DNA of 64,000 bases from Lachnospiraceae bacterium. Its GTDB lineage: Bacteria; Bacillota; Clostridia; Lachnospirales; Lachnospiraceae. The stretch lies in contig JBKECO010000031.1 of NCBI GenBank assembly GCA_047974745.1, forward strand, positions 33,478-97,477, in the 5' to 3' direction. The position numbers and the translations under genes were made by a program. Below are positions 37,748 to 49,435 of this stretch, one piece after another. Each line of letters starts with the position of its first letter. Positions within the stretch are counted from its first letter, which is position 1. The notes under the pieces were generated by a model that saw nothing but the letters and a program-made list of their open reading frames with translations, ran no database searches and was not told the DNA's origin.

Positions 37748-40006
37748 TCAGACTCTCACCCGTATCGTCTTACTATAGGAACCATAGATTCTTTTACCAT
37801 TCTTCATGATATAGGATCTGGTTCTGATGTAGTATACTTTTTTCTTATTGAATTTTGAAATGATAACATGATCTTTTTTTTCGTTTTTAATATAGTAATT
37901 TTTCTTTTGTGAGGAAAAATCTCGTTTTCTGGAAATCTGTACCTGATATCCATCAGCCATGATATCTGTTTTTAGTTTTACCTTGATCTTACCATCTCCT
38001 GTAATCTCAGCCTTTGCTTTATTTCTTTTTGGCACCACAGTGAGCATTGCTTCTGCACTGCCATTTTCATCTGTCACCCTGATACGAACGATACCTGTTC
38101 GTTTGATCGTGACCTTTCCTGACCTCTTTCCGATTGTCGCTATTTTTCTATTCATGCTTTGATATTCAGGATTGCCTTCCAGATTTTGAACATCCAGATA
38201 AATGCATTTGTTTTTCTTATAGGATACTATTTTATCTGCTATGGAGAGTTCTTGTTTCACGACCTCAGGTTCTTCTGCTACCTCAACAGGTACTGGAAGA
38301 TCTGGCTTCACATACTCAGGTATATTTTTTCCAGGCTCTGCTTCCTCGATCGTGAAGAGAATATACATTGGACTAAAGTCATTATTTTTGTAGTTGTAAT
38401 AAAGTCCAATTCCCTCCACTACTATAGTAGCAATCCCTGCCCTGAAATTATGATAGTAATGGAGTGTATAATCCACATTTTCCTTAAGCAGAAGATTCTG
38501 ATATCTTATGATCGGTTTTGGACAGATGAATTCATCATCGTGTATCTTTTGTACTGGAATGGGATCCGCTTTTGCATCTGCAATGTGTGCCTGTACAATG
38601 ATTTCCATCTGCTCTTTTTTGATGATACCATCTTCCTCTACCTCTGCGTAAATTTGTGTAATACCTGGATATTTTCCAATCACATCCACACTATGATGTC
38701 TTATATCATTCAATTGTGCTATTTTAGGATCCTCTACTGACCATCTGACCGGATCTAAATAAGCCAGGCAGTCTTCCGGTAAAATTCGAACACCAATTGT
38801 AGCAGCCGCTTCACCGATTCGCGCAACGGTTCCATTGGGTACATAGATTTCCATTTCTGTCATCGGTTTCTTTATCACTAGGTTCAGCTGAATACTGTGA
38901 CCGCTCTCATCTTCGCCTGTAATAACGATTCTTCCTCCCTTCCTAGTACTAAGTAGACCATTCGACATGACGACAGCAGTCTCCGGATTGCTGCTAGTCC
39001 ATTTTATGGCATCTGTTGTGTCAGCAGGAAATATTTCCGCCAGCTCATAGAGTTTAACCATATCTTCAACATTACAGGTCAGCTCCATTTTGACGCTGCC
39101 ATCCACAAACTGCAGTTGAGTGGATGGATATCGTTCGATCATGACACTTACTTTATCCATTCCTGATGCGTATCCTGCCGTATCCTTCATCTTACTATCC
39201 AGCATTTCCTTGACAGAATCCAACTTTACCACATATGCAGACCCTATCGGCATGCCAAAAAAGATACCATCCAAATAATAAGCGGACTCTATCTTCGTCC
39301 TTTTTAAATACAAATGAAGGGGATTGACAAAATGGCAGAAGGATGCGGAAGAAAGGACATCGACAGTCTCAGGTACTATAATTTTCTTTAGGTATTTACT
39401 TTTCATAAAAGCGTACTGATGTACATAGTTGATTCCATTCGGAATAATATAATTCTCTCCTTCCCTTGAAGCAGGGTAGACCCAGATATTAGTACCAGCA
39501 TATAACACTCCATCTATGGAATAAAAGACTTCGCGGTTCGAGCCCGCTTCAATTGACCGCAGTGAGGGGACGAGGGAGAAAGCGATGGAAGATACTGCGC
39601 CAATGCTTTTTGGCAAAGTTAATGTTTCGATATTTCGCCGTTCCAGAAATGTACCGGAATTAAGTCCCATTACAATCATGTTCTGAGCAGTATCTGGAAT
39701 TGTTACATCAACATCATTGCCCAAATATCTCTCAACCCAAAGAAAATCTATTCCGCTGTATGTTTTGATCTCATATATAAAATCTCCCTCAGTAATCAGT
39801 CTTGGTTCTTCGGCTGTTCTCGAAAAGGATGAAGAAACTCTATCCAAAATTATTTCATCGCCCCGCATAAATTCGATGCTCTTCATATATTCTGAGTTCT
39901 GCATGACTTCGGCAGCCTGTACCTGCATTACATCCGTGCCTTGAATAGCAAGACCTGTAAATAGCATTAAGATCCATAATCCTTTAATTATCTTGAAGTA
40001 ATTCAT
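37748..40006 (-). CDS. Secreted surface protein with BspA-type leucine-rich repeats, Big_2 Ig-like domain(s) and an FN3-like C-terminus
   Basis: 752 aa with a signal peptide (ends ...VQAAE). LRR_5-like repeats are present (TLPKSIGAVSSIAFS...). A Big_2-like segment reads AIKWTSSNPETAVV. There is no LPXTG. The start overlaps the upstream gene by 23 nt. Confidence 0.75.
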   Translation of the reverse strand: MNYFKIIKGLWILMLFTGLAIQGTDVMQVQAAEVMQNSEYMKSIEFMRGDEIILDRVSSSFSRTAEEPRLITEGDFIYEIKTYSGIDFLWVERYLGNDVDVTIPDTAQNMIVMGLNSGTFLERRNIETLTLPKSIGAVSSIAFSLVPSLRSIEAGSNREVFYSIDGVLYAGTNIWVYPASREGENYIIPNGINYVHQYAFMKSKYLKKIIVPETVDVLSSASFCHFVNPLHLYLKRTKIESAYYLDGIFFGMPIGSAYVVKLDSVKEMLDSKMKDTAGYASGMDKVSVMIERYPSTQLQFVDGSVKMELTCNVEDMVKLYELAEIFPADTTDAIKWTSSNPETAVVMSNGLLSTRKGGRIVITGEDESGHSIQLNLVIKKPMTEMEIYVPNGTVARIGEAAATIGVRILPEDCLAYLDPVRWSVEDPKIAQLNDIRHHSVDVIGKYPGITQIYAEVEEDGIIKKEQMEIIVQAHIADAKADPIPVQKIHDDEFICPKPIIRYQNLLLKENVDYTLHYYHNFRAGIATIVVEGIGLYYNYKNNDFSPMYILFTIEEAEPGKNIPEYVKPDLPVPVEVAEEPEVVKQELSIADKIVSYKKNKCIYLDVQNLEGNPEYQSMNRKIATIGKRSGKVTIKRTGIVRIRVTDENGSAEAMLTVVPKRNKAKAEITGDGKIKVKLKTDIMADGYQVQISRKRDFSSQKKNYYIKNEKKDHVIISKFNKKKVYYIRTRSYIMKNGKRIYGSYSKTIRVRV

Positions 40007-43000
40007 GTTTTCCCTCTTTTCTCCCCTGTTCTAAAAATGTCTGATAGTACATTTCATTCGCCGTATTTGGTCCCAATTGTTTAATCCATTCCTGCATTTC
40101 CAGAATTTTTTCATGTGTGAATTCAAAACGACCTGCAAGATTCTCATATACTCCACTTCCCGGCACAGGGATCGGCGTGGCTCCTAGTGCCAATTCTGTT
40201 ACTCCTGGCTCGGTATATAAAATATCCTTTTTCTTTATATTCAGAACCTGCAGCAGATACTCTTGATACGCTCCCTCGCTCCAAATGGATGACGCATCCA
40301 CTGTCGGCAAAAAGTCCTTTGAAATGAACCGTGGATCGCCTAGATCGAAATTTTGTACTTCTGTATCAACAAGGAAAACGAAAATTGTTTTTTTCGAAAT
40401 ATTCCCCACCTGATCCGGCGCCTGGATCCAGATTGAAAAGCTGTCATCCGATTCGGCGCCGGTAAATTCAGTTTCCTGATAATCCAGGATCGCCTTCTCG
40501 CAGTTCGGCGTATCATCAAGAACCTGTATACAATCTAGAATATACTGCTCCGTCAATACTCCATTTCTGGCATCCTCCAGCGAAAAGTACAGATCTGATG
40601 CCAAAATCTGAGGGAAGGAATCCCATACTGCATAAAAATTAAGGAAAGGCATACGGTTTGTCGAAAACTCCTCGGGTATTGGCAACGGATCTTGTCCACC
40701 CTCTGCAGAATAATAGTCTGCTGAGGGTGCACCAATGGAAAGACCCATCTTATTAGAAAGATGCTTTTCATTTGAAGCCTCCGCAAACAGAATATGCCCA
40801 TGTACTGGATCCTTCGTATAAATCATACTGTCTCTTTGGGCATACCTGTCTTTTTCCAGGCTCCATCCAATCAGCTGATAGGGTATTGTCTCCAACATCT
40901 CATTTCCATTTATATCCGTAGAACTGCCTGTTCTAAGATCGATCGTCTGTCTCTCGTCATATTTTTCAAAATGCATACCGCCTGCTTGCGTATTACCCTT
41001 GTCGTTACTTGAAAACATCACAGAGTCAAATATAGAATCAATCTGCTCCAGATAATTACCTCCCGCATTCTGTCCATTGCCAATAAAAACGATCTGGAAT
41101 GAAGTATCCCACTGTGCATAGAGTACACAATCTCCGTTCTCTGTTATCTCATATACAGGGCGTTTCTTTGATAGAACAAGATCCTGCTCGCCGTTAATCT
41201 CTGGTGTGAGGCTCCATCCAAGGAATCGATATGCTTTCTCAAAGATAGGGTCTGTAACTCTTGCCTCCTCATAGTTGAGTGTCATACTTTTTCCTGTACT
41301 TTTCCATTGGATATCTGGTACCTTAACATTGCCAAGATTCACGACTGCCAGATCATTCTTATTTACGTTGCCAAGAAATCTGACAGCTTCATAGGGACGC
41401 CAATGGGCATGTACCGTTGTATCTGCAGCAAAATATGTAAATTCTGCATACCCGCCTATTTTTGAAAGCAGCTCTCCGTTCTGCCCAATGAAAGCGGTGC
41501 CTTTTCCCTCTTTTTCCGTAAAGTATCCCATGAACTGATATTTTCTTTTACCACCTGGAAGTGAAGAATCCTCAGCATATTTTATTGGAACTGTGATCCT
41601 ATTATTTAAAAAAATTTGATTTAATTCTTTATCTGCAAAATATCCGATAGTATATTTCTGATAAACATATTTTGTTGGCCTATTGCTTTGCTCACTACCA
41701 GGTGCATTTAGGTTTATTAAGAAAGTCCCTGGCATCCATACTGGTGTGAATACCACTGAGGTATTCGTGGTATAGGCAGATCCACATTGATATTCTTTTC
41801 CATCAGAACACTTCCAACCAGTCAGAATATATCCCCTTTTTGTGATCTGATCCTGCGCAGGTGTTCTTCCAGACCCACTACCCCATTCTGCGCTCAGGTC
41901 GATTGTAGCACCATGCACAGATGTGAGGTTTATAATAGACTGGTTTTCGGAAAAAAGTGTACTCCGGTCTCTTCTCCATCCCAAAAAACTTCTATATAGT
42001 GACTGGTTTCTGACAGAGGGATCTCGTGGGACTTCATCTGCTCCCAGCCTGAACTCTGCTGTTATAGGAAAGTTGAAATAATTCCTGGAAAGCCAGCTAC
42101 TCTTATTATAAACATGTGTTGTTGCAGCAGTCTTTCCCTTACCCCCACCCGGGTTATATTTTATGATATATTGATTTGGTGCAAAGTATCGCCTGACAGA
42201 CTGTGAATTTACAAGCTGCTTTGGTGCATAGTAATTAGCTTCTGTATCCGATTCAAAATGATACCCTGTATACGGAGATGAAATGCCCCACATTCTGCCT
42301 TGCACCAGAGTATCTGGGTATAGCCTCTTCATATTGATGCCAGAACTGCCTGCCTTTAGACCAGTATCAGAATAATAATCCTCAGATTTGGCTGTGACAG
42401 AATACGGTTTCTGATGTATTTTCGCTATGGCATGCACACTATTAGGATCATCGATCCATTTTACTCCATTGTGGATTGATCCTTGCCCCGTATTGGTCGC
42501 ATTGATCTGTAGTGTAAAACTTCTTCTCCTATCATCGATCTCAGCTTCAGATCGAAGCGTGTCCTTAGCTCCGGCAGAATTATTGATATCATATTCTCTT
42601 GTATTAAGCCTAAATCCTGATCGATAGTGCTCGATCGAAAACTTCTGATCATGGAACTCTTTCGTCAGATAGGAGAGATCAACCGTATATACACTATATT
42701 TCATATTTGTTTCGGCAGAATCTCCGCCCTGCTTTCTCTTCGAAGTACTGCGATCCAGCTTTAGATTAAAATAATCGGAAGGATTCAGGCTGCCATCCTG
42801 CCTGTATTTATTATCAATCGTCATTGTCACACGTCTGTCCTGATCTCCCGATGCATGGTTGATCAGATTGATCTTGTAATCTGTGCGGACATCTCCCCTT
42901 TGTGCAGGATCCTGACTGTAATAATAATTTCCACATGACATCTTAAGCCAAAAGTACCCACTCAAATGTCCAATATCCAGGCCGGCCGATGTGTGAAATT

Positions 43001-44246
43001 CTCCCAGATCCAGCGTGAGATAGTATTCATATTTTTTGGTACCCAGCACTATTGTGGGATCATTCGTCAAAAGAGGTTCCTTTAAATCTTCTAATCGATG
43101 AAGCAGCAGCTCCAGTTTATCCGAATTTGCCTGAACAAAACCAGCGATCTCTGTAATATCAGAATTCACATAGGCTCGTATCAGCTGATCCTCTGTACAG
43201 CTCTCCCAGTCCTTTAATGAAAGAAGTGTCCGTTCCGAGGTTTCTGCAGAAAAATTCACCCTGTTCCCTGCTATTTCAGCACCCAGATATCCATGCCCGG
43301 TATATAGATCCCATCCTTCGACACCCTGATCTGTTGCATCTTCCACCAGTCGACGTTCCAGTTCTTCGGGATTTAGATGAATTTCTTCTGATTTTATCAT
43401 AGCCGCAATGGCTGTTACCTGCGCTGCTGCATAGGAAGTACCTTCTTGCACCCCCTCTGGCTCCACTCCATCTGAGACAAAATCCAGTGTTTTTCCATAA
43501 TTGGAAAAATCCGCTCTCTGTCCATCCTTACCTAATGCTCCCACAACTATGACCTGGTCTAAATCAGACGGTGAGTAATTCATGGTATTTCCACCTTCAT
43601 TTCCAGCGGACACAATGACCGTAATTCCACTCTCGACTGCTAAAAGCAGTGACTCACTGATCTTTTCTGTTGTTTTTCCGGCTATGCTGTTCATACTAAG
43701 ATTAATAATGTGTACCCCTTCTGACATTGCCGCCTCAATTGCAAGCGAAACGGATTCAGCAGAAGCCTCACCCATTTGGTCAGCTGCTTTTATAGGCATG
43801 ATTTTTACATTTTCATCTGAGTAGGATGCAATGATTCTGCATATTTGAGAGCCATGACCATTTAAATCAAATACAGTGTCATCCTTTGTAAAATTGTAGT
43901 TGGTATGGAGCATTCTGTTATGTGGAATTGGAATGGACTCCGCTGCTCCTGTATCTATTACCCCAACGATTACATCTTTGCGCTTTTCTTCTTCGATTAC
44001 TGTGTTAGCTTCTATGTCTCTCCCCGATTCAACCTCTGATTCTTCTGTGCTTGGTACTGATCCTTCATCTGCCTCGTAAAAGTATTCTTGCACTGAATTT
44101 ATATTTGAATCTTTAGAAATTTTATAGACTCCCTTCTCACCCCTGAGATCTGCATACGTTCTAAGAGAATCACTCCCAGAGGAAAGAAGTTCGACAAGTA
44201 TCATCAACGTACAAATCAGCCTTGTGATCACTTTTTTCATATTCAA
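39984..44246 (-). CDS. Giant secreted S8 (subtilisin-like) serine peptidase with multiple Listeria-Bacteroides (InlB B-type) repeats
   Basis: 1420 aa with a signal peptide. The catalytic triad context is VGVIDTGA / NGHGSQ / GTSYAAA. Downstream aromatic-GW/GY repeat motifs are FLGWRRD, LTGWKCSDG, FMGYFTEKEG, FLGWSLTPE and LIGWSLEKD. There is no sortase motif. Confidence 0.85.
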   Translation of the reverse strand: MNMKKVITRLICTLMILVELLSSGSDSLRTYADLRGEKGVYKISKDSNINSVQEYFYEADEGSVPSTEESEVESGRDIEANTVIEEEKRKDVIVGVIDTGAAESIPIPHNRMLHTNYNFTKDDTVFDLNGHGSQICRIIASYSDENVKIMPIKAADQMGEASAESVSLAIEAAMSEGVHIINLSMNSIAGKTTEKISESLLLAVESGITVIVSAGNEGGNTMNYSPSDLDQVIVVGALGKDGQRADFSNYGKTLDFVSDGVEPEGVQEGTSYAAAQVTAIAAMIKSEEIHLNPEELERRLVEDATDQGVEGWDLYTGHGYLGAEIAGNRVNFSAETSERTLLSLKDWESCTEDQLIRAYVNSDITEIAGFVQANSDKLELLLHRLEDLKEPLLTNDPTIVLGTKKYEYYLTLDLGEFHTSAGLDIGHLSGYFWLKMSCGNYYYSQDPAQRGDVRTDYKINLINHASGDQDRRVTMTIDNKYRQDGSLNPSDYFNLKLDRSTSKRKQGGDSAETNMKYSVYTVDLSYLTKEFHDQKFSIEHYRSGFRLNTREYDINNSAGAKDTLRSEAEIDDRRRSFTLQINATNTGQGSIHNGVKWIDDPNSVHAIAKIHQKPYSVTAKSEDYYSDTGLKAGSSGINMKRLYPDTLVQGRMWGISSPYTGYHFESDTEANYYAPKQLVNSQSVRRYFAPNQYIIKYNPGGGKGKTAATTHVYNKSSWLSRNYFNFPITAEFRLGADEVPRDPSVRNQSLYRSFLGWRRDRSTLFSENQSIINLTSVHGATIDLSAEWGSGSGRTPAQDQITKRGYILTGWKCSDGKEYQCGSAYTTNTSVVFTPVWMPGTFLINLNAPGSEQSNRPTKYVYQKYTIGYFADKELNQIFLNNRITVPIKYAEDSSLPGGKRKYQFMGYFTEKEGKGTAFIGQNGELLSKIGGYAEFTYFAADTTVHAHWRPYEAVRFLGNVNKNDLAVVNLGNVKVPDIQWKSTGKSMTLNYEEARVTDPIFEKAYRFLGWSLTPEINGEQDLVLSKKRPVYEITENGDCVLYAQWDTSFQIVFIGNGQNAGGNYLEQIDSIFDSVMFSSNDKGNTQAGGMHFEKYDERQTIDLRTGSSTDINGNEMLETIPYQLIGWSLEKDRYAQRDSMIYTKDPVHGHILFAEASNEKHLSNKMGLSIGAPSADYYSAEGGQDPLPIPEEFSTNRMPFLNFYAVWDSFPQILASDLYFSLEDARNGVLTEQYILDCIQVLDDTPNCEKAILDYQETEFTGAESDDSFSIWIQAPDQVGNISKKTIFVFLVDTEVQNFDLGDPRFISKDFLPTVDASSIWSEGAYQEYLLQVLNIKKKDILYTEPGVTELALGATPIPVPGSGVYENLAGRFEFTHEKILEMQEWIKQLGPNTANEMYYQTFLEQGRKEGKHELLQDN

Positions 44247-44258
44247 ACCCTTCTCCCG

Positions 44259-44885
44259 TTAATTAAATTTTGCCGTAAATACCCGATCTCCATGCAGTAT
44301 AACAGCTGATCCTTCCTGATCTGTTGCGACCTCCCTCTTAACACCTGTCACATCACCTGTCTCGGTCAAAAATGTCTGCGCATTTCCTGTTTCATTCGTC
44401 CAGCCAAGAAAGGATTGTCCAGATCGTGCTGGATCCTTTGGTTTTGGTATGTGAGAACCTTCTTCAAGACCATATTGCTTATAGATATCACCTGTAGGAT
44501 ACAGATAGGTCACTGTATAATTTACCGGTTCAAACTCTATTTCACGATCCAGAATAATGGTACGGAGTTCAGAAATTCTTCCTATTTTTCCATTTGGATA
44601 AGAATATGTCATAAGTACATCAGCCGATAGAATACCCATTTCTGGATCCGCAGATAGAATTTCGACCTTTAGATCAGATTCACTGTGTATTCCAGATATA
44701 AGACTTTGCATGAAAATAGAAATGAATTCCTCCTGGGACATTCCACCATCATCCTGTACCAAAGCAAGCTCACGAATCGTCAGATCCAAAGCTGCCGCAA
44801 GCTCCTGTCGCAGTTCATTTTCCCGAAGGGTCTTAGAAGAAACAGATAGGAGCATAACAAAGCCAAGAAGAATGGATACAAACAA
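44259..44885 (-). CDS. Membrane-anchored protein with one Listeria-Bacteroides-type repeat
   Basis: 208 aa with a TTG start after GGGGGA. It has an N-terminal hydrophobic helix and the C-terminal motif GQSFLGWTNETGNA. Confidence 0.6.
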   Translation of the reverse strand: MFVSILLGFVMLLSVSSKTLRENELRQELAAALDLTIRELALVQDDGGMSQEEFISIFMQSLISGIHSESDLKVEILSADPEMGILSADVLMTYSYPNGKIGRISELRTIILDREIEFEPVNYTVTYLYPTGDIYKQYGLEEGSHIPKPKDPARSGQSFLGWTNETGNAQTFLTETGDVTGVKREVATDQEGSAVILHGDRVFTAKFN

Positions 44886-44899
44886 AATTCCCCCATATA

Positions 44900-45403
44900 T
44901 TATGTGCCTGATACGAACACCTCCCGTGCACCCAGAATGGGAATCCGGAAAAACACTGTCGTTCTTTTTCCACGATCATCTTGTGCACTGACTCGAATTT
45001 TATAGACCCCGGCTGTCGGAAAGCGAAAACTGTTTTGATTTTCTGCATCTGGGATCCAAAGACTGTTTCCCTCTGCATCCCAGATGTCATGAATTTTTAT
45101 GACAACATTTTCACTTTTATAATCCACTCCATAGAACCAGTGCTCCAGATCATAGTCCTGATCAGCAAATGCATTTTCCCGCATGTAAAATATATCTGGA
45201 TTCCCAACTTCCACCTTGACCTCCGGTCGCATATGACCAGTAAGATTGTTCCTGCGTACTGTTTGTGTTATACGATCAGCAAACACCGGTATCAGTCCTT
45301 TCCTCCCCTGAATATCTACAGCATTAAAAATCAAAAACAGTATGGCCGTGCCTGCTGCGATCGAAATTACAACTCTTCCATATTCTTGAAATAATAGCTT
45401 CAT
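44900..45403 (-). CDS. Flp-like minor pilin/pseudopilin with a C-terminal beta-rich (Ig/PKD-like) domain
   Basis: 167 aa. The N-terminus MKLLFQEYGRVVISIAAGTAILFLIF carries the EYG-plus-hydrophobic-helix motif shared with three neighbouring small ORFs. The C-terminus GVYKIRVSAQDDRGKRT is PKD-like. Confidence 0.6.
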   Translation of the reverse strand: MKLLFQEYGRVVISIAAGTAILFLIFNAVDIQGRKGLIPVFADRITQTVRRNNLTGHMRPEVKVEVGNPDIFYMRENAFADQDYDLEHWFYGVDYKSENVVIKIHDIWDAEGNSLWIPDAENQNSFRFPTAGVYKIRVSAQDDRGKRTTVFFRIPILGAREVFVSGT

Positions 45404-45415
45404 GTTTCCTCCCTG

Positions 45416-45547
45416 CTAAACGATCCTTTGTCCCCAAATATATAGAAACTGCCAGAGCAGTCCGTTTCTTTCTATCATAGCTGCAATGACAGAAATGATA
45501 CCGATGGTCGCACTTGCAGCCAATATCATTCCCCCATATTCCTCCAT
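45416..45547 (-). CDS. Small Flp-like pilin (43 aa), below the ORF-track length cutoff
   Basis: Hand-translated as MEEYGGMILAASATIGIISVIAAMIERNGLLWQFLYIWGQRIV. It fills an otherwise empty gap inside a tightly packed operon. An alternative TTG start lies 12 nt upstream, after GAGGGTG. Confidence 0.5.
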   Translation of the reverse strand: MEEYGGMILAASATIGIISVIAAMIERNGLLWQFLYIWGQRIV

Positions 45548-45579
45548 TACTTCTGTCAACCTATTCACCCTCTCTCGAA

Positions 45580-45684
45580 CTAAGAAGTTAACATGTTTAA
45601 TATAATTCCAAGCGCCAGAAACATAGAAGCACCAGTAATCATATACAACAATGCTGATCCATATTCTTCCATTATTTTCCTCAT
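45580..45684 (-). CDS. Small Flp-like pilin (34 aa), below the ORF-track length cutoff
   Basis: Hand-translated as MRKIMEEYGSALLYMITGASMFLALGIILNMLTS. A GAGGT RBS lies about 9 nt upstream. The gene starts 8 nt after the upstream stop. Confidence 0.5.
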   Translation of the reverse strand: MRKIMEEYGSALLYMITGASMFLALGIILNMLTS

Positions 45685-45691
45685 GTGTACC

Positions 45692-46063
45692 TTACCTCGT
45701 ATATCCTCTGAAGGTACAATTAATCTCATCAGAAAAAGGATTCGGCCTATACAAAAAAGTCAGCTGGACTTCAGCCATCTTTATCTTTGCAGGCATGGAT
45801 CCACCACTATTGTCTGCTATAATAGCCTGCCCTTTTTCATCATACCCTTGTACATTCAGAAGATAATTTCTATTCTCTGCCTCCTGAATACAGTTGCTCA
45901 TCACATTACTGTCAAAGTCACTGTTTTCCAAAACAGAGATAACATCATTTTTAAAATCCTGTGCATTTGAAACCTCAATCTGAGCACCAAGCATCCCCCC
46001 TGCTGTAAATAAAAAGAAAATCAACATGAAGAATCCAAGGTATATTTTAATGACTACCTCCAT
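45692..46063 (-). CDS. Membrane-anchored pilus-accessory protein (DUF4320/TadE-like position)
   Basis: 123 aa with a GGGAGGAGGGG RBS, an N-terminal hydrophobic helix, and a small globular domain. Confidence 0.5.
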   Translation of the reverse strand: MEVVIKIYLGFFMLIFFLFTAGGMLGAQIEVSNAQDFKNDVISVLENSDFDSNVMSNCIQEAENRNYLLNVQGYDEKGQAIIADNSGGSMPAKIKMAEVQLTFLYRPNPFSDEINCTFRGYTR

Positions 46064-46075
46064 ATCCCCTCCTCC

Positions 46076-47503
46076 CTACGTGCTTATTGATCCAAGATAG
46101 GAAATGACCAGAAAACTCATATCCGCCATCATTTTCAGCATTCCGAGAAAAGCCGGAACTAAGAACAAAAGATACATGGCTGCCATCTTGTCTTCATTGA
46201 TTAAACTTTCAGACTGCAGTAACAGTTCTCTGTTTCTCTCTAAAATCTCGCCTGTCTGCTGCTGTACATCTCCGCTTCCCTGCGTGACAGCATAGAGCAT
46301 GCCCATTGCTGAGGTTATCTCAGGAATTGAAAATTCTTTTAAAAACTCAGTATATGGATAGTTGGATTCTGGATATTCCTGAATCTGGATCCATAATCTT
46401 CTGATAGCCGGCTGTAGAACCGGTTCTGAAACATTCATGCTTTTTTGAATCGATATTGCTACATTTTCTGTCTGCATCAGAAGGGAAAGTTCTGTGATCC
46501 ATTGTGGAAAAAATTTTCGAATCTCCCGACTGGCACTTTTTTTCACAAGATGAAATCCTAGTTGATGCTGCATAAAAAGTATAGATGAAAGTGCCGCCAT
46601 GAAGCCGGATAAAACTTTTAACCCAGTAATCCAAAGAGCAGCGGAAACCAAAGCTGCACCGGTGCCTGCTATCAGACTGGTGCGCATTTCTTTCTTTTTA
46701 TTGAAATTCTTTACTTTCCAGTAGAGCTCTTCTCCATTTCTCTTCTTCCGGTTTCCATGCTCCTGCTGGGATTTTAAAATCTTCTTCTCAGCCTGAATAT
46801 AAACGACAAGTTCAAGAGTGATGTATAGCAGTGTTGAGAGCTGATAGACAAGAGAATTAGTAAATTCGGCATTTTTCGTCACTTTTGAAGTGAAAATTGG
46901 AGTGATCAGGCATAGTAGTGACGATAGCACAATAGACATTAGAACATTTCTTTTTCCCTGCCTGCAACTATTTTGATATACACGACTCTGCTTCTCCCAG
47001 ATATTTCTGTCAGCAAGTAGGACCACAATGGCACTTTCATATTCTCCGCCGTGCTTCTCAACATTTAACATGAGTCTGTGAATACTGTTCATTCTCTGAT
47101 TTGGGTATTCCTTTTCCATCATTTGTAATGCCTTTTGTTGAACATCTTGCTCAGTATAGGCCGTTTTTAAAAAATGGACAGCTCTGCCTATCACCCGTTT
47201 CATTTTTCCCTCAGAAAAAATTCGTTCAACATCTGTGAGGGCATTACCTATTTTGGGATTCATGCGAAAGCTATATAGTATCTGCTCCATATATAAATTG
47301 ACATCGAGAAAATCCTGTTCAAATGCTTTTGTTCTGCACTGTATCCCACGCAGTATACATGCAAAGACCAGTACTTCTGCGATCGAAACAATTAAAAACA
47401 CATGGGTTAGCTGAAACAGTTTGCCCAATACAGTGGCGGCGATCATCACAAATAGAAAGAATGGGATGTCTGATTTTTGAAACCGTTGCCCTGGTCTACC
47501 CAT
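46076..47503 (-). CDS. Type II secretion system F-family platform protein (fused TadB/TadC-like)
   Basis: The ATG at 47503 follows AGGAGG and overlaps the ATPase gene stop by 8 nt. The protein is polytopic with two T2SSF-like halves. Confidence 0.7.
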   Translation of the reverse strand: MGRPGQRFQKSDIPFFLFVMIAATVLGKLFQLTHVFLIVSIAEVLVFACILRGIQCRTKAFEQDFLDVNLYMEQILYSFRMNPKIGNALTDVERIFSEGKMKRVIGRAVHFLKTAYTEQDVQQKALQMMEKEYPNQRMNSIHRLMLNVEKHGGEYESAIVVLLADRNIWEKQSRVYQNSCRQGKRNVLMSIVLSSLLCLITPIFTSKVTKNAEFTNSLVYQLSTLLYITLELVVYIQAEKKILKSQQEHGNRKKRNGEELYWKVKNFNKKKEMRTSLIAGTGAALVSAALWITGLKVLSGFMAALSSILFMQHQLGFHLVKKSASREIRKFFPQWITELSLLMQTENVAISIQKSMNVSEPVLQPAIRRLWIQIQEYPESNYPYTEFLKEFSIPEITSAMGMLYAVTQGSGDVQQQTGEILERNRELLLQSESLINEDKMAAMYLLFLVPAFLGMLKMMADMSFLVISYLGSIST

Positions 47504-48560
47504 CCGAATCCTCCTTTGCAGCTGGATTTGCAAAGTAATCCGTGATTCCCTTCTGATTCATTTTCAGGCTGATTTCTTCCGGAAGTGTATTTGTCAGAAG
47601 CTTTCCCTGATCTACCAGCATAAATAGTCGGTTCTGATTCTGAGAGCGAGTATATAAGCATATCTGGTCAATGTATCGCCTGATCTCCCCATCTGGAAAC
47701 ATTTTCTTACAAAGAAGAACACCTACGTCAACATAGCTGTAAATATCATTGATGATTCTCTGTGACTCAGTGTCATTCTCCATCATATTCAAAAGTCTCT
47801 CAGGTATCTTCTTGACAGAATCCGTGTGAAGTGTTGTGAATCCCTTGATTCCTGTACTCCAACATGTCAGCAGTGCTCTTGCCTCTGTTGATCTTACTTC
47901 CGAAAGCATGAGCCAGGAGGGGTTCATTCGTAGAGATGTTTTGATTGCTTTTGTATAATCCATTCTGCGATTTACTTTGATCTCTACCGCATCGTTATTC
48001 GGATTGATTTTTTTATAGTGAAGCTCAGGGTTATCCTCGATCGTGATTACTTTTTCATTGACGGGAATGAACTGAGACAAAAACTTGGCACATTCTGTCT
48101 TACCAGCTGCAGGCTCCCCACAAAAAACAAAATTCATCTTTGCCGCCACACAATTAATCAGAAATGCGAGAACTTCACGGCTGGCATAGCTATTTGAAAT
48201 TGCATCCCCAACAGAGAATCTGAGTGCCGGTAGTGACTTTCGTATGCAAAAACTTCTGCCCGTCACCGCAACAGATTCATGAATCATTGTGATTCGCAAG
48301 GTCTCCGTTTCTGCTTCTAGAACTGTTTCTGCTGCATTAAAATGACAGCTGACTTCATTCGCAATGATCGAAGTGAACTTCTCAAGAAATCCTTTTTCGA
48401 TCTGCTGCTTTGCGCATTCGACCTGATAACGGACATTATCCGTAGTTGTCACCCAAAGCTCTGATCCGTTATAGTCAACATCTGTGATGGATTCATTCTG
48501 AATATAGGATGTCAGAATTCCGAATACATCTGAATTAATCGGAAGAGATAGTTTTTGCAA
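47496..48560 (-). CDS. CpaF/TadA (VirB11-like) secretion ATPase
   Basis: Walker A is GEPAAGKT, the Asp box is ITIEDNPELH, Walker B-like is WLMLSEVRSTEA, and the His box is TTLHTDS. The TTG at 48560 lies 7 nt after GGAGG. The longest ORF starts at the TTG at 48578. Confidence 0.85.
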   Translation of the reverse strand: MQKLSLPINSDVFGILTSYIQNESITDVDYNGSELWVTTTDNVRYQVECAKQQIEKGFLEKFTSIIANEVSCHFNAAETVLEAETETLRITMIHESVAVTGRSFCIRKSLPALRFSVGDAISNSYASREVLAFLINCVAAKMNFVFCGEPAAGKTECAKFLSQFIPVNEKVITIEDNPELHYKKINPNNDAVEIKVNRRMDYTKAIKTSLRMNPSWLMLSEVRSTEARALLTCWSTGIKGFTTLHTDSVKKIPERLLNMMENDTESQRIINDIYSYVDVGVLLCKKMFPDGEIRRYIDQICLYTRSQNQNRLFMLVDQGKLLTNTLPEEISLKMNQKGITDYFANPAAKEDSDG

Positions 48561-48574
48561 TTCTCTACCTCCCC

Positions 48575-48760
48575 TCAAGGCGTCCCAAGTCCAGCGGCCT
48601 GATTTGCACTTGCGTAAAAATTATTGATCAGATCGGCAAATGCTTTATATACAATGCTGTTGGTATCATCTCCTATCACCAGTGTCACAATGCCTACAAT
48701 AGCAAGCACTCCGATCACTGCAATAATAGTCTGTCCGTATTGTTTGAAAATTTCTTCCAT
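48575..48760 (-). CDS. Flp-like pilin (61 aa), probable major subunit
   Basis: The ATG at 48760 lies 7 nt after AAGGAG. The sequence is MEEIFKQYGQTIIAVIGVLAIVGIVTLVIG followed by a short hydrophilic tail. Confidence 0.6.
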   Translation of the reverse strand: MEEIFKQYGQTIIAVIGVLAIVGIVTLVIGDDTNSIVYKAFADLINNFYASANQAAGLGTP

Positions 48761-49317
48761 AACTGTTCTCCTTCGTATAATTTTCGAATTATAAATTGTA
48801 TCGATTCCCAAGCTATATTTATCTCACAGCTTAGTTGATGCATTCCATCTTGATTTCCTCTTCTCAAATCAGATTTCCCAGTGAATGATTTTTTTTCCAA
48901 TAAAAACGGGATCCTGGTGTCGTATGGAATAAACGCAGTATCATTCGCTGAAAGCTTAAATAAATTACAAAAATGGGTGATTTTTTTTGTTTCCATGGGA
49001 GTAAATTTTCCAATGAAAAGCATTCTGCGCTGACTGCGCAATGGATATTTCTGAAAGAATTGCTCCAGCCCAGTACTGGACTGATTTGTGTTTAAGATTA
49101 AAAGGTCAGCCGTTTGGATCAGCTCTCGCTGATGCAGGCTGCTTTGACCTCCCGTATCTGTTAGAACATGATTTAGCTTGGCCATGTGCCAGAACTCTGA
49201 TGGATCACAACAGAAAATAAGTGGTTCGATATTCGTGTGATTCCATACTGAATGAAAAAAACGCAGATTCGTACTAGTCCCGGTGCCTTCGCAAACTCCG
49301 TGAAATACAATTTTCAT
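48715..49317 (-). CDS. ParA/MinD-fold protein with degenerate P-loop (CpaE/TadZ-like position), first gene of the operon
   Basis: 200 aa. The N-terminus MKIVFHGVCEGTGTSTN resembles a deviant Walker A, but both lysines are replaced. Confidence 0.45.
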   Translation of the reverse strand: MKIVFHGVCEGTGTSTNLRFFHSVWNHTNIEPLIFCCDPSEFWHMAKLNHVLTDTGGQSSLHQRELIQTADLLILNTNQSSTGLEQFFQKYPLRSQRRMLFIGKFTPMETKKITHFCNLFKLSANDTAFIPYDTRIPFLLEKKSFTGKSDLRRGNQDGMHQLSCEINIAWESIQFIIRKLYEGEQLWKKFSNNTDRLLLQ

Positions 49318-49406: not shown

Positions 49407-49435
49407 ATCATACTATTTAAAAGTGCAAATGTAAA
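49407..49435 (-). promoter_or_regulatory. Candidate sigma-A promoter of the Tad-like operon
   Basis: Minus strand reads TTTACA, a 17-nt spacer, then TATGAT. It is about 90 nt upstream of the first ATG. Confidence 0.4.

Follow-up and report, generated by a model that had tools for sequence, protein, structure and literature searches.

The 64,000-nucleotide stretch of DNA analysed here (the window; GenBank assembly GCA_047974745.1, contig JBKECO010000031.1, positions 33,478 to 97,477 of the forward strand) comes from a Lachnospiraceae metagenome-assembled genome (MAG). On its minus strand, at about 39984-49317 of the window, it contains an operon that is an undescribed, widespread variant of the Tad-like type IV filament operon; its subunits share an N-terminus that is very short and fixed, and no prepilin peptidase is linked to it. 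The gene order is 200-aa (amino acid) gene, pilA, ATPase, platform, 123-aa gene, pilB, pilC, pilD, a gene of about 208-217 aa and a 1420-aa gene. The proteins correspond to NCBI entries MFV0466545-51, and all but one bear the name "hypothetical". Six small pilin-like proteins are encoded, compared with the four of a first-pass annotation made from the sequence alone, whose N-termini (starting at 48760, 45684, 45547 and 45403) were found on the minus strand and all within this one operon. As that annotation had proposed, the small proteins are paralogous and pilin-like in architecture, and they are encoded inside a type IV filament-type operon. By a small margin of confidence, the region is read here as the pilin set of an operon for a Tad-like type IV filament whose subunits are left uncut.

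A pattern scan of a one-genome-per-species collection gave 208 encoding stretches, and 80 loci were fetched. They come from Roseburia, Petralouisia, Lacrimispora, Lachnoclostridium phytofermentans, [Clostridium] fimetarium, Clostridium tyrobutyricum, C. cavendishii, Anaerobium, Eubacterium sp. 14-2 and many MAGs. The order pilA (1-3 copies), ATPase, platform, 123-aa gene, pilB, pilC, pilD, 208-aa gene and large secreted protein is kept in the 80 loci, and it recurs together with the N-terminal pattern in loci whose platforms share only 29-45% identity. Full-text literature searches found no description of this operon family, nor of type IV pilins that naturally lack a leader.

Pilin-Like Proteins and Their Common N-Terminus

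All genes of the operon are on the minus strand. pilA (48575-48760) encodes a 61-aa protein that begins MEEIFKQYG and continues with a transmembrane (TM) helix and a short amphipathic helix; its start, with an AGGAGA Shine-Dalgarno site 6 nt upstream, is identical to the NCBI call. pilB (45580-45684) and pilC (45416-45559) are mini-genes. The former, which has no NCBI annotation and is known from syntenic open reading frames (ORFs), encodes 34 aa (MRKIMEEYG, then the TM helix), and the latter encodes 47 aa (MTEVMEEYGG, then the TM helix). pilD (44900-45403), preceded by a GGAGG Shine-Dalgarno site, encodes 167 aa with MKLLFQEYG, a TM helix and a beta-rich, weakly PKD-like domain (E 0.056).

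The starts originally proposed for pilA and pilD were kept, while that of pilC is most likely TTG 45559 instead of ATG 45547, in agreement with the NCBI call (P0005, 47 aa) and with the homologues. For pilB there is a second possible start at 45672 (MEEYG), and the homologues MKTVIEEYG and MKLIMEQFG back 45684. With the homologue-backed starts, M-x6-[YF]-G is obtained in all four proteins, Glu/Gln7, Tyr8 and Gly9 being followed by about 20 hydrophobic residues. The first-pass annotation had placed the Glu-Tyr pair at a varying distance of 3-7 residues from the Met; with the corrected starts this spacing is in fact fixed. A Shine-Dalgarno site precedes each of the reported starts, all six pilin-like proteins begin 5-9 residues ahead of the membrane helix, and the common N-terminus can be written M-[KREDQ]-x-[IV]-[FILM]-x-[EQ]-[YF]-[GSA].

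Two paralogues had been overlooked. The fifth one is the 123-aa protein (45692-46063), with MEVVIKIYLG, a TM helix and a domain of about 90 aa. It is present in 82 loci, and its family begins M-[GS]-Q-V-I-K-T-[YF]-x-G, with Tyr or Phe at position 8 in 68/68 members and Gly10 in 63/68. The sixth is the product of the "208-aa" gene (44259-44912), with (M)RHIIYGGILF, a TM helix and a domain of about 100 aa with an InlB B-repeat (Flg_new, 1.4e-6). Members were found in 75 loci, with Lys2 in 64/66 and Gly7 in 58/66. In the window, no ATG, GTG or TTG is usable at this N-terminus (44886-44912), and the apparent start is ATC 44912-44910, upstream of the annotated TTG 44885 and in the same frame, with GGGAGGTG 5 nt upstream. 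The in-frame codons from ATC 44912 read I-R-H-I-I-Y-G-G-I, to be compared with M-K-H-I-I-Y-G in the homologues; this ATC would be either a non-canonical start or an assembly base error.

The mini-ORFs are kept in length, position and sequence across loci. Syntenic ORFs of the pilB type (30-37 aa, consensus MKxIiEEFGgaiiYaIAG) are present in at least 46, and those of the pilC type (44-51 aa, consensus MkEIfEEYG) in at least 53, of the 72 loci in which any B/C/D-type gene was detected. A pilD homologue of 145-180 aa is found in 68 loci. The shortness of these ORFs and the missing annotation of pilB could point to hydrophobic mini-ORFs without function, produced by chance or as an annotation artefact. 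However, the ORFs are syntenic and of conserved length and sequence across 80 loci, and the Shine-Dalgarno sites are strong, so that this explanation is already contradicted by the comparative data and is regarded as next to impossible.

Across the family, the only invariant columns of pilA are Met1 and Tyr8. The AlphaFold2 (AF2) model of the protein (pLDDT 88) predicts a helix at residues 2-28, a loop and a second helix at residues 36-56. No pilin match was obtained for pilA against the PDB, either by profile or by Foldseek. Three database proteins (P0276, P0282 and P0293) contain the whole pilA module followed by 230-470 extra C-terminal residues, and such fusions parallel the modular pilins of other type IV systems. 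The precursor of the pKM101 conjugative pilin TraM (PDB 8cw4, chain 1A) starts with MTTLFKKYGPAVV, which resembles the pilA clade MQDILKEYGPALI at an E of 1.1. This resemblance is probably due to chance, since in TraM the stretch belongs to the cleaved signal peptide.

Start Codons and Upstream Sequence

The possibility of a hidden leader was examined in 107 pilA-position genes, a set that takes in some unrelated small ORFs, and in 172 B/C/D genes. Position 8 is aromatic in 89/107 and 122/172, respectively. No in-frame ATG, GTG or TTG occurs upstream in 71/107 and 118/172, and an in-frame stop lies no more than 5 codons upstream in 38/107 and 78/172. In some cases the stop immediately precedes the Met, at 0 codons, as in L062 8879 and L075 9056, and it lies 4 codons upstream in the pilD of the window. 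Because of these in-frame stops and missing start codons, a normal leader from an upstream alternative start is ruled out. In-frame upstream starts giving a G-xxxx-EY leader were what the first-pass annotation had named as the case against its "leaderless Flp-like pilins", and no such start can supply one. The absence of an upstream leader is therefore retained from that description, while the likeness to Flp comes down to the E-Y-G motif and the architecture.

Database searches gave the same start. A profile search of 5.8 billion proteins yielded 386 pilA relatives (90% identity clusters). Among the best 120 homologues, the same Met is called as the start in 106, and the 14 longer calls hold this Met internally, in several of them right after translated Shine-Dalgarno residues. 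An exhaustive HMMER search of 1.84 billion representatives, using a profile from an alignment of database matches (A3), gave 366 pilA clusters (50% identity) at E ≤1e-3 and 141 at E ≤1e-10. No conserved N-terminal extension was present in any of the 366 clusters. Among the best 149 clusters, 115 have the same Met as their start and are aromatic at position 8; of the 33 offset matches, 28 are aligned from an internal Met onwards.

ATPase and Platform

The gene following pilA (47496-48578, likely start TTG 48560) encodes a secretion ATPase of the T2SSE/VirB11/TadA/FlaI family and is present in 85/87 loci. The Pfam T2SSE match (9.2e-19) is above the family cutoff, while the NCBIfam matches to VirB11 (8e-29, score 100.7 vs. 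a cutoff of 249.95) and to the TadA family (4e-21) are both under theirs. In the PDB, VirB11/HP0525, archaeal GspE, FlaI and CpaF are about equally close. A T2SSE-family extension ATPase, one of the marks of a type IV filament system, is thus encoded with the subunits.

The next gene (46076-47533; NCBI start ATG 47503, 475 aa) encodes a polytopic platform protein of 475-485 aa. No match was found for it by Pfam, NCBIfam or PDB sequence profile, nor for its all-helical AF2 model (pLDDT 87) by Foldseek against the PDB, and none of 22 word-indexed homologues is annotated. In tblastn, the C half matched the Tad-like locus of a Parageobacillus plasmid (E 7e-6). In hhalign, the N half aligned with a PGAP-annotated T2SSF-family protein of that locus (93%, E 2.5e-7) and the C half with the adjacent TadC-position protein (95%, E 3.8e-8). 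Since its halves align with TadB- and TadC-position proteins, the platform is, by profile alignment, a fused TadB-TadC-type protein. The two T2SSF-type domains expected of a type IV filament platform are accordingly seen by hhalign, and there is no direct Pfam T2SSF match.

Prepilin Peptidase Search

The first-pass annotation had stated that no A24 peptidase gene is in the 64 kb, and this is borne out: Pfam assigns another identity to every window ORF that is predicted to have at least three TM segments (GGDEF, ECF-S, VanZ, CNNM, a permease and others). A phmmer search with the TadV-type peptidase of Parageobacillus found nothing in the 64-kb window or in 87 loci of 6-21 kb, and no A24 peptidase was found on the 83-kb element MT835474, the record of a distant relative. 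The canonical Firmicutes Tad locus of Parageobacillus encodes an A24 peptidase right beside its pilin. The S8 protease encoded in the operon was considered as a substitute processing enzyme and ruled out, because the S8 domain occurs only in the clade of the window (about 13 loci) and on a Sec-secreted protein.

Fate of the N-Terminus

Glu5-Tyr6 of Flp pilins are reportedly part of the mature protein and needed for assembly, a finding attributed to Tomich et al. in 2006 (cited in PMC10191384). The E7-Y8-G9 of the present subunits would then be equivalent to the mature E5-Y6-G7 of Flp, the proteins being made essentially mature with two extra residues and left uncut; we consider this slightly better than an even bet. 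Paralogues that cannot otherwise be aligned all keep the same number of residues between Met and Tyr. Position 9 of pilA is Gly, Ser or Ala, with Ser in the large MKVIFEEYSG clade, and Ala is found at this position in many pilC proteins. One large pilA clade has Pro10 (MQDILKEYGP), 18/68 pilD-type proteins have no Gly at positions 7-11, and the MT835474 pilin MKETVAHILEIAVVV also lacks Gly at these positions while keeping the same register from Met1. An invariant Tyr8 next to a variable Gly9, the Pro10 clade and the Gly-less paralogues favour retention, and the single continuous helix predicted for residues 2-28 of pilA was counted on the same side.

Removal of the Met alone, which the first-pass annotation had offered as the only processing, is unlikely. 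Methionine aminopeptidase does not accept Lys, Arg, Glu, Asp, Gln or Asn at residue 2, and these are the residues found at that position in pilA-D; Gly or Ser occurs there only in the 123-aa family.

Several observations weigh against an uncut N-terminus of Flp type. Homology to Flp is without statistical support in the sequence comparisons: 20 diverse pilA members gave no match to Pfam Flp_Fap (PF04964) at E up to 10, and comparison of pilA with other pilin models likewise yielded only scattered TM noise. Where position 9 is Ser or Ala, Gly is found at position 10. The weak profile alignments favour cleavage, since Gly9 falls on the cleavage-site Gly both in a Pfam N_methyl match (E 0.027, 14.5 bits vs. 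a cutoff of 21.2) and in hhalign of pilA with four genuine Flp pilins (17% probability). A net negative charge in the N-terminal segment makes the topology unreadable by the positive-inside rule. A peptidase missing from the locus would be weak evidence by itself, since no peptidase is linked to the MSH pilus loci either, and these are believed to borrow one (PMC6668835). In addition, nine hydrophilic residues ending in Gly and followed by about 22 hydrophobic ones fit the general definition of class III signal peptides (PMC10191384). Because of this fit and of the MSH precedent, cleavage after Gly9 by an unlinked enzyme keeps some probability.

The subunits would in that case be ordinary prepilins with a short acidic leader of 9-10 residues (M-K-E-I-F-E-E-Y-G), cut after Gly9 or Gly10 by an unlinked A24 enzyme (PilD, ComC or TadV), an explanation that is possible but rather doubtful. 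Equally doubtful is its corollary, that the mature pilins would begin at the hydrophobic helix, without Glu5. Gly9 or Gly10 is indeed present in nearly all pilA, pilB and pilC proteins directly ahead of the hydrophobic stretch, and the x-T-[IA]-I after that Gly resembles Flp +1 to +4. Peptidases are also shared between systems, the MSH loci have none of their own (PMC6668835), and many Clostridia are generally known to have type IV or Com pili. However, both alignments backing cleavage are below significance. Cleavage would discard the invariant Tyr8 together with the conserved Ile4/Phe5 and would leave a variable new N-terminus, with Pro at +1 in one large clade; the 18 pilD-type proteins and the MT835474 pilin mentioned above would offer no Gly to cut after. 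The features of a class III signal peptide present in most subunits are the helix and the preceding Gly, whereas the "leader" has only 5-9 residues, is acidic and has a fixed length, invariant over very divergent paralogues and the 366 clusters. No Glu5 follows Gly9, and the most conserved residues sit inside the "leader". On these grounds we infer that the N-terminus is kept, at the strength stated above.

Comparison with Known Systems

The system works like Tad/Flp but should not be filed as one. As in Tad/Flp, a short ATPase of the TadA/VirB11/FlaI branch and TadB-/TadC-related platform halves are encoded in a single operon, together with a tiny major subunit (about 50-60 aa) and minor subunits that share its motif. 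The size, the E-Y-[GA] ahead of the hydrophobic helix and the short C-terminal helix are Flp-like, which is a resemblance and no proof of homology. Unlike Tad/Flp, the platform is a single fused protein, there is no TadV peptidase in or near the operon, and a giant secreted protein is a constant partner. The G/XXXXEY motif after a basic leader of 10-25 residues ending in Gly is not found; here the start lies 7 residues before the Tyr, with E-Y at residues 7-8 from the Met. There is no Pfam Flp_Fap or TadE match, the Pfam scans of ten operon proteins gave no CpaB match, and no clear TadZ/CpaE was seen. The 123-aa protein matched neither DUF4320 of the Parageobacillus locus nor the PDB. Type IV secretion systems (T4SS), with their VirB2-type pilins, were likewise considered and not matched: no VirB4, VirB6, VirD4-type or other T4SS family was found in the operon by Pfam and NCBIfam, and pilA has a single TM helix.

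The nearest annotated relative of the platform is in the monoderm Parageobacillus thermoglucosidasius, on plasmid NZ_CP063416 (L087). This locus lies on a mobile element, as does, apparently, one subclade of the present family. It differs in having separate TadB and TadC proteins, CpaB, an AAA ATPase, a 467-aa CpaF-type ATPase, the A24 peptidase and a pilin with a long basic leader. L087 (23169-39537) directly adjoins TrbL/VirB6-like, large hypothetical and lysozyme-family genes, an arrangement in which a Tad-type pilus may be coupled to a conjugation module of Gram-positive type.

A Tad-like pilus cluster of the TANB77 gut Clostridia combines, like the present operon, a TadA-like ATPase with a platform in which TadC and TadB are fused; it also encodes several consecutive single-TM pilin-like proteins that defy annotation, and the main text of its description makes no mention of a prepilin peptidase (PMC11680825). 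The cluster differs by CpaB, TadZ, CpaE, a 640-aa ATPase and a 693-aa platform with the opposite domain order, and its pilin-like proteins have 143-237 aa, with no leaderless N-terminal motif described there (PMC11680825). The MSH pilus loci share with the present family the type IV filament locus without a linked prepilin peptidase, but have pilins with normal class III leaders, presumably use the peptidase of another system and belong to a proteobacterial T4a lineage (PMC6668835). The Com pilus (ComGA, ComGB, ComGC-GG and ComC) is similar as a minimal monoderm machine with a single ATPase and a single platform, one major pilin and four minor ones. It differs in its canonical leaders with Glu5, in its need for ComC, and in an ATPase and a platform of a different branch.

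Giant Protein and Proposed Mechanism

The last gene of the operon (39984-44246) encodes a giant Sec-secreted protein of 1420 aa with an S8 subtilase domain (Peptidase_S8, 1e-29), as well as repeats and, at the C-terminus, a conserved domain of about 200 aa. Outside the clade of the window, InlB B-repeats are found in place of the S8 domain. The C-terminal region (about residues 1203-1400; window 39984-40600) has no Pfam match and matches the last gene of about 60 loci; this shared domain may be the module that ties the giant proteins to the pilin set. With its variable N-terminal passenger and conserved C-terminal domain, the giant protein resembles the tip-located non-pilin effectors PilY1/PilC. 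Directly downstream of the operon, at 37748-40006 on the minus strand, a 752-aa protein with BspA-type leucine-rich repeat (LRR) and Big_2 domains is encoded, which may be a second adhesin of the same island. In another locus (L001), an LRR_5/fn3 protein is likewise encoded downstream.

From the gene content we infer that a filament is assembled. The VirB11/TadA-type ATPase and the fused TadB-TadC platform would pull small bitopic proteins out of the membrane and join them into a polymer. pilA is presumed to be the major subunit because its gene immediately precedes that of the ATPase, is equipped with a strong ribosome-binding site and is found in 1-3 tandem copies. The minor subunits would be the 123-aa protein, pilB, pilC, pilD and the 208-aa protein; extracellular-type domains are present in two of these (PKD-like in pilD, InlB B-repeat in the 208-aa protein). 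The six subunits would be translated without a class III leader, their N-terminus corresponding to the mature x-x-x-I-E-Y-G of Flp plus two residues, and they would be assembly-competent as made, with Met1 retained and no prepilin peptidase required. The filament, or a short pseudopilus, would probably carry or expose the giant protein through its conserved C-terminal domain, docked on the complex of minor subunits.

The small proteins could instead be bitopic parts of an ATPase-driven apparatus for export or display of the giant protein, with no pilus at all. No pilin family profile was matched, Foldseek gave no pilin fold for pilA, the 34- and 47-aa mini-proteins have almost no extracellular part, and the constant partner is the giant secreted protein, whose C-terminal domain is conserved. 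However, an ATPase combined with a TadB/TadC-like platform is the motor that characterises filament assembly (PMC10191384), and the position, ribosome-binding site and tandem copies of pilA are those of major pilin genes. Its helix-loop-helix and E-Y-G mirror Flp, and one major with several minor subunits sharing an N-terminal motif is a standard pilin set. An export apparatus without a pilus is therefore considered improbable, and filament assembly is the reading kept in what follows.

Genomic Context and Mobility

A promoter-like site lies upstream of the operon at 49407-49435 on the minus strand (TTTACA-17-TATGAT, 10/12 matches, a consensus match only). The first gene (48715-49317) encodes a cytoplasmic protein of 200 aa with no Pfam match and a weak BcsQ match (E 0.12), possibly a degenerate ParA/TadZ-like protein. 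BLASTP found homologues in 12 loci and no similarity to the TadZ-position ATPase of L087. The gene overlaps the start of pilA by 46 nt in a different frame (48715-48760). Since its L001 homologue has 175 aa and stops before pilA, the C-terminus of the window protein may be shifted or extended. In the window and in L005, the operon is flanked by degV and a CNNM/CorC gene, a position that is a stable chromosomal site of the operon.

One subclade (L056, L061, L062, L075 and about 14 related loci) has almost identical pilA proteins (MKEIFEQYGSVIIAAV...) in C. tyrobutyricum, C. cavendishii, L. phytofermentans, C. fimetarium, Lacrimispora and Anaerosporobacter. The genes next to it in this subclade encode ParB together with an actin-like ALP segregation protein, or else an FtsK/SpoIIIE-like protein. 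Because near-identical pilins across genera are combined with such flanks, this subclade looks like a mobile element that carries the system between genera. In L056 (4874-5050) and 12 other loci of the subclade, an extra conserved membrane protein of 57-65 aa is encoded upstream of pilA; its N-terminus, M-[KR]-x-[IV]-F-[ST]-x-I-G, has the same spacing as the pilin-like genes. A phage origin was ruled out, with no relatives in IMG/VR; the three "Bacteriophage sp." matches in GenBank are unverified faecal contigs.

Implications

It is about an even chance that the operon is a type IV filament machine, widespread in Clostridia of the gut and the environment, that works without a prepilin peptidase, its pilins being translated mature, with Met1 kept and E-Y-G seven residues in, and assembled directly. 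Pilin assembly that dispenses with the usual leader-cutting peptidase may be encountered here for the first time. The prepilin peptidase is counted with three other components as the core universal to type IV filaments (PMC10191384, PMC6668835), and if this reading is true, leader cleavage, as one of four "universal" core steps of their biogenesis, would not be obligatory. Unprocessed subunits would be a natural experiment on the purpose of leader cleavage, be it topology, timing or N-terminal charge pairing with Glu5. A class III signal peptide is the defining feature of type IV pilins, and detection tools such as PilFind and the MacSyFinder models depend on it and on the peptidase; the present operon family is invisible to them. 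The approximately 200 species matches include cultured strains of Roseburia, Petralouisia, Lacrimispora, Lachnoclostridium and Clostridium. For abundant gut Lachnospiraceae, the operon would be an unannotated surface-structure locus, and since it is tied to giant adhesin- or protease-like proteins, it may be relevant to attachment to the host or to substrates.

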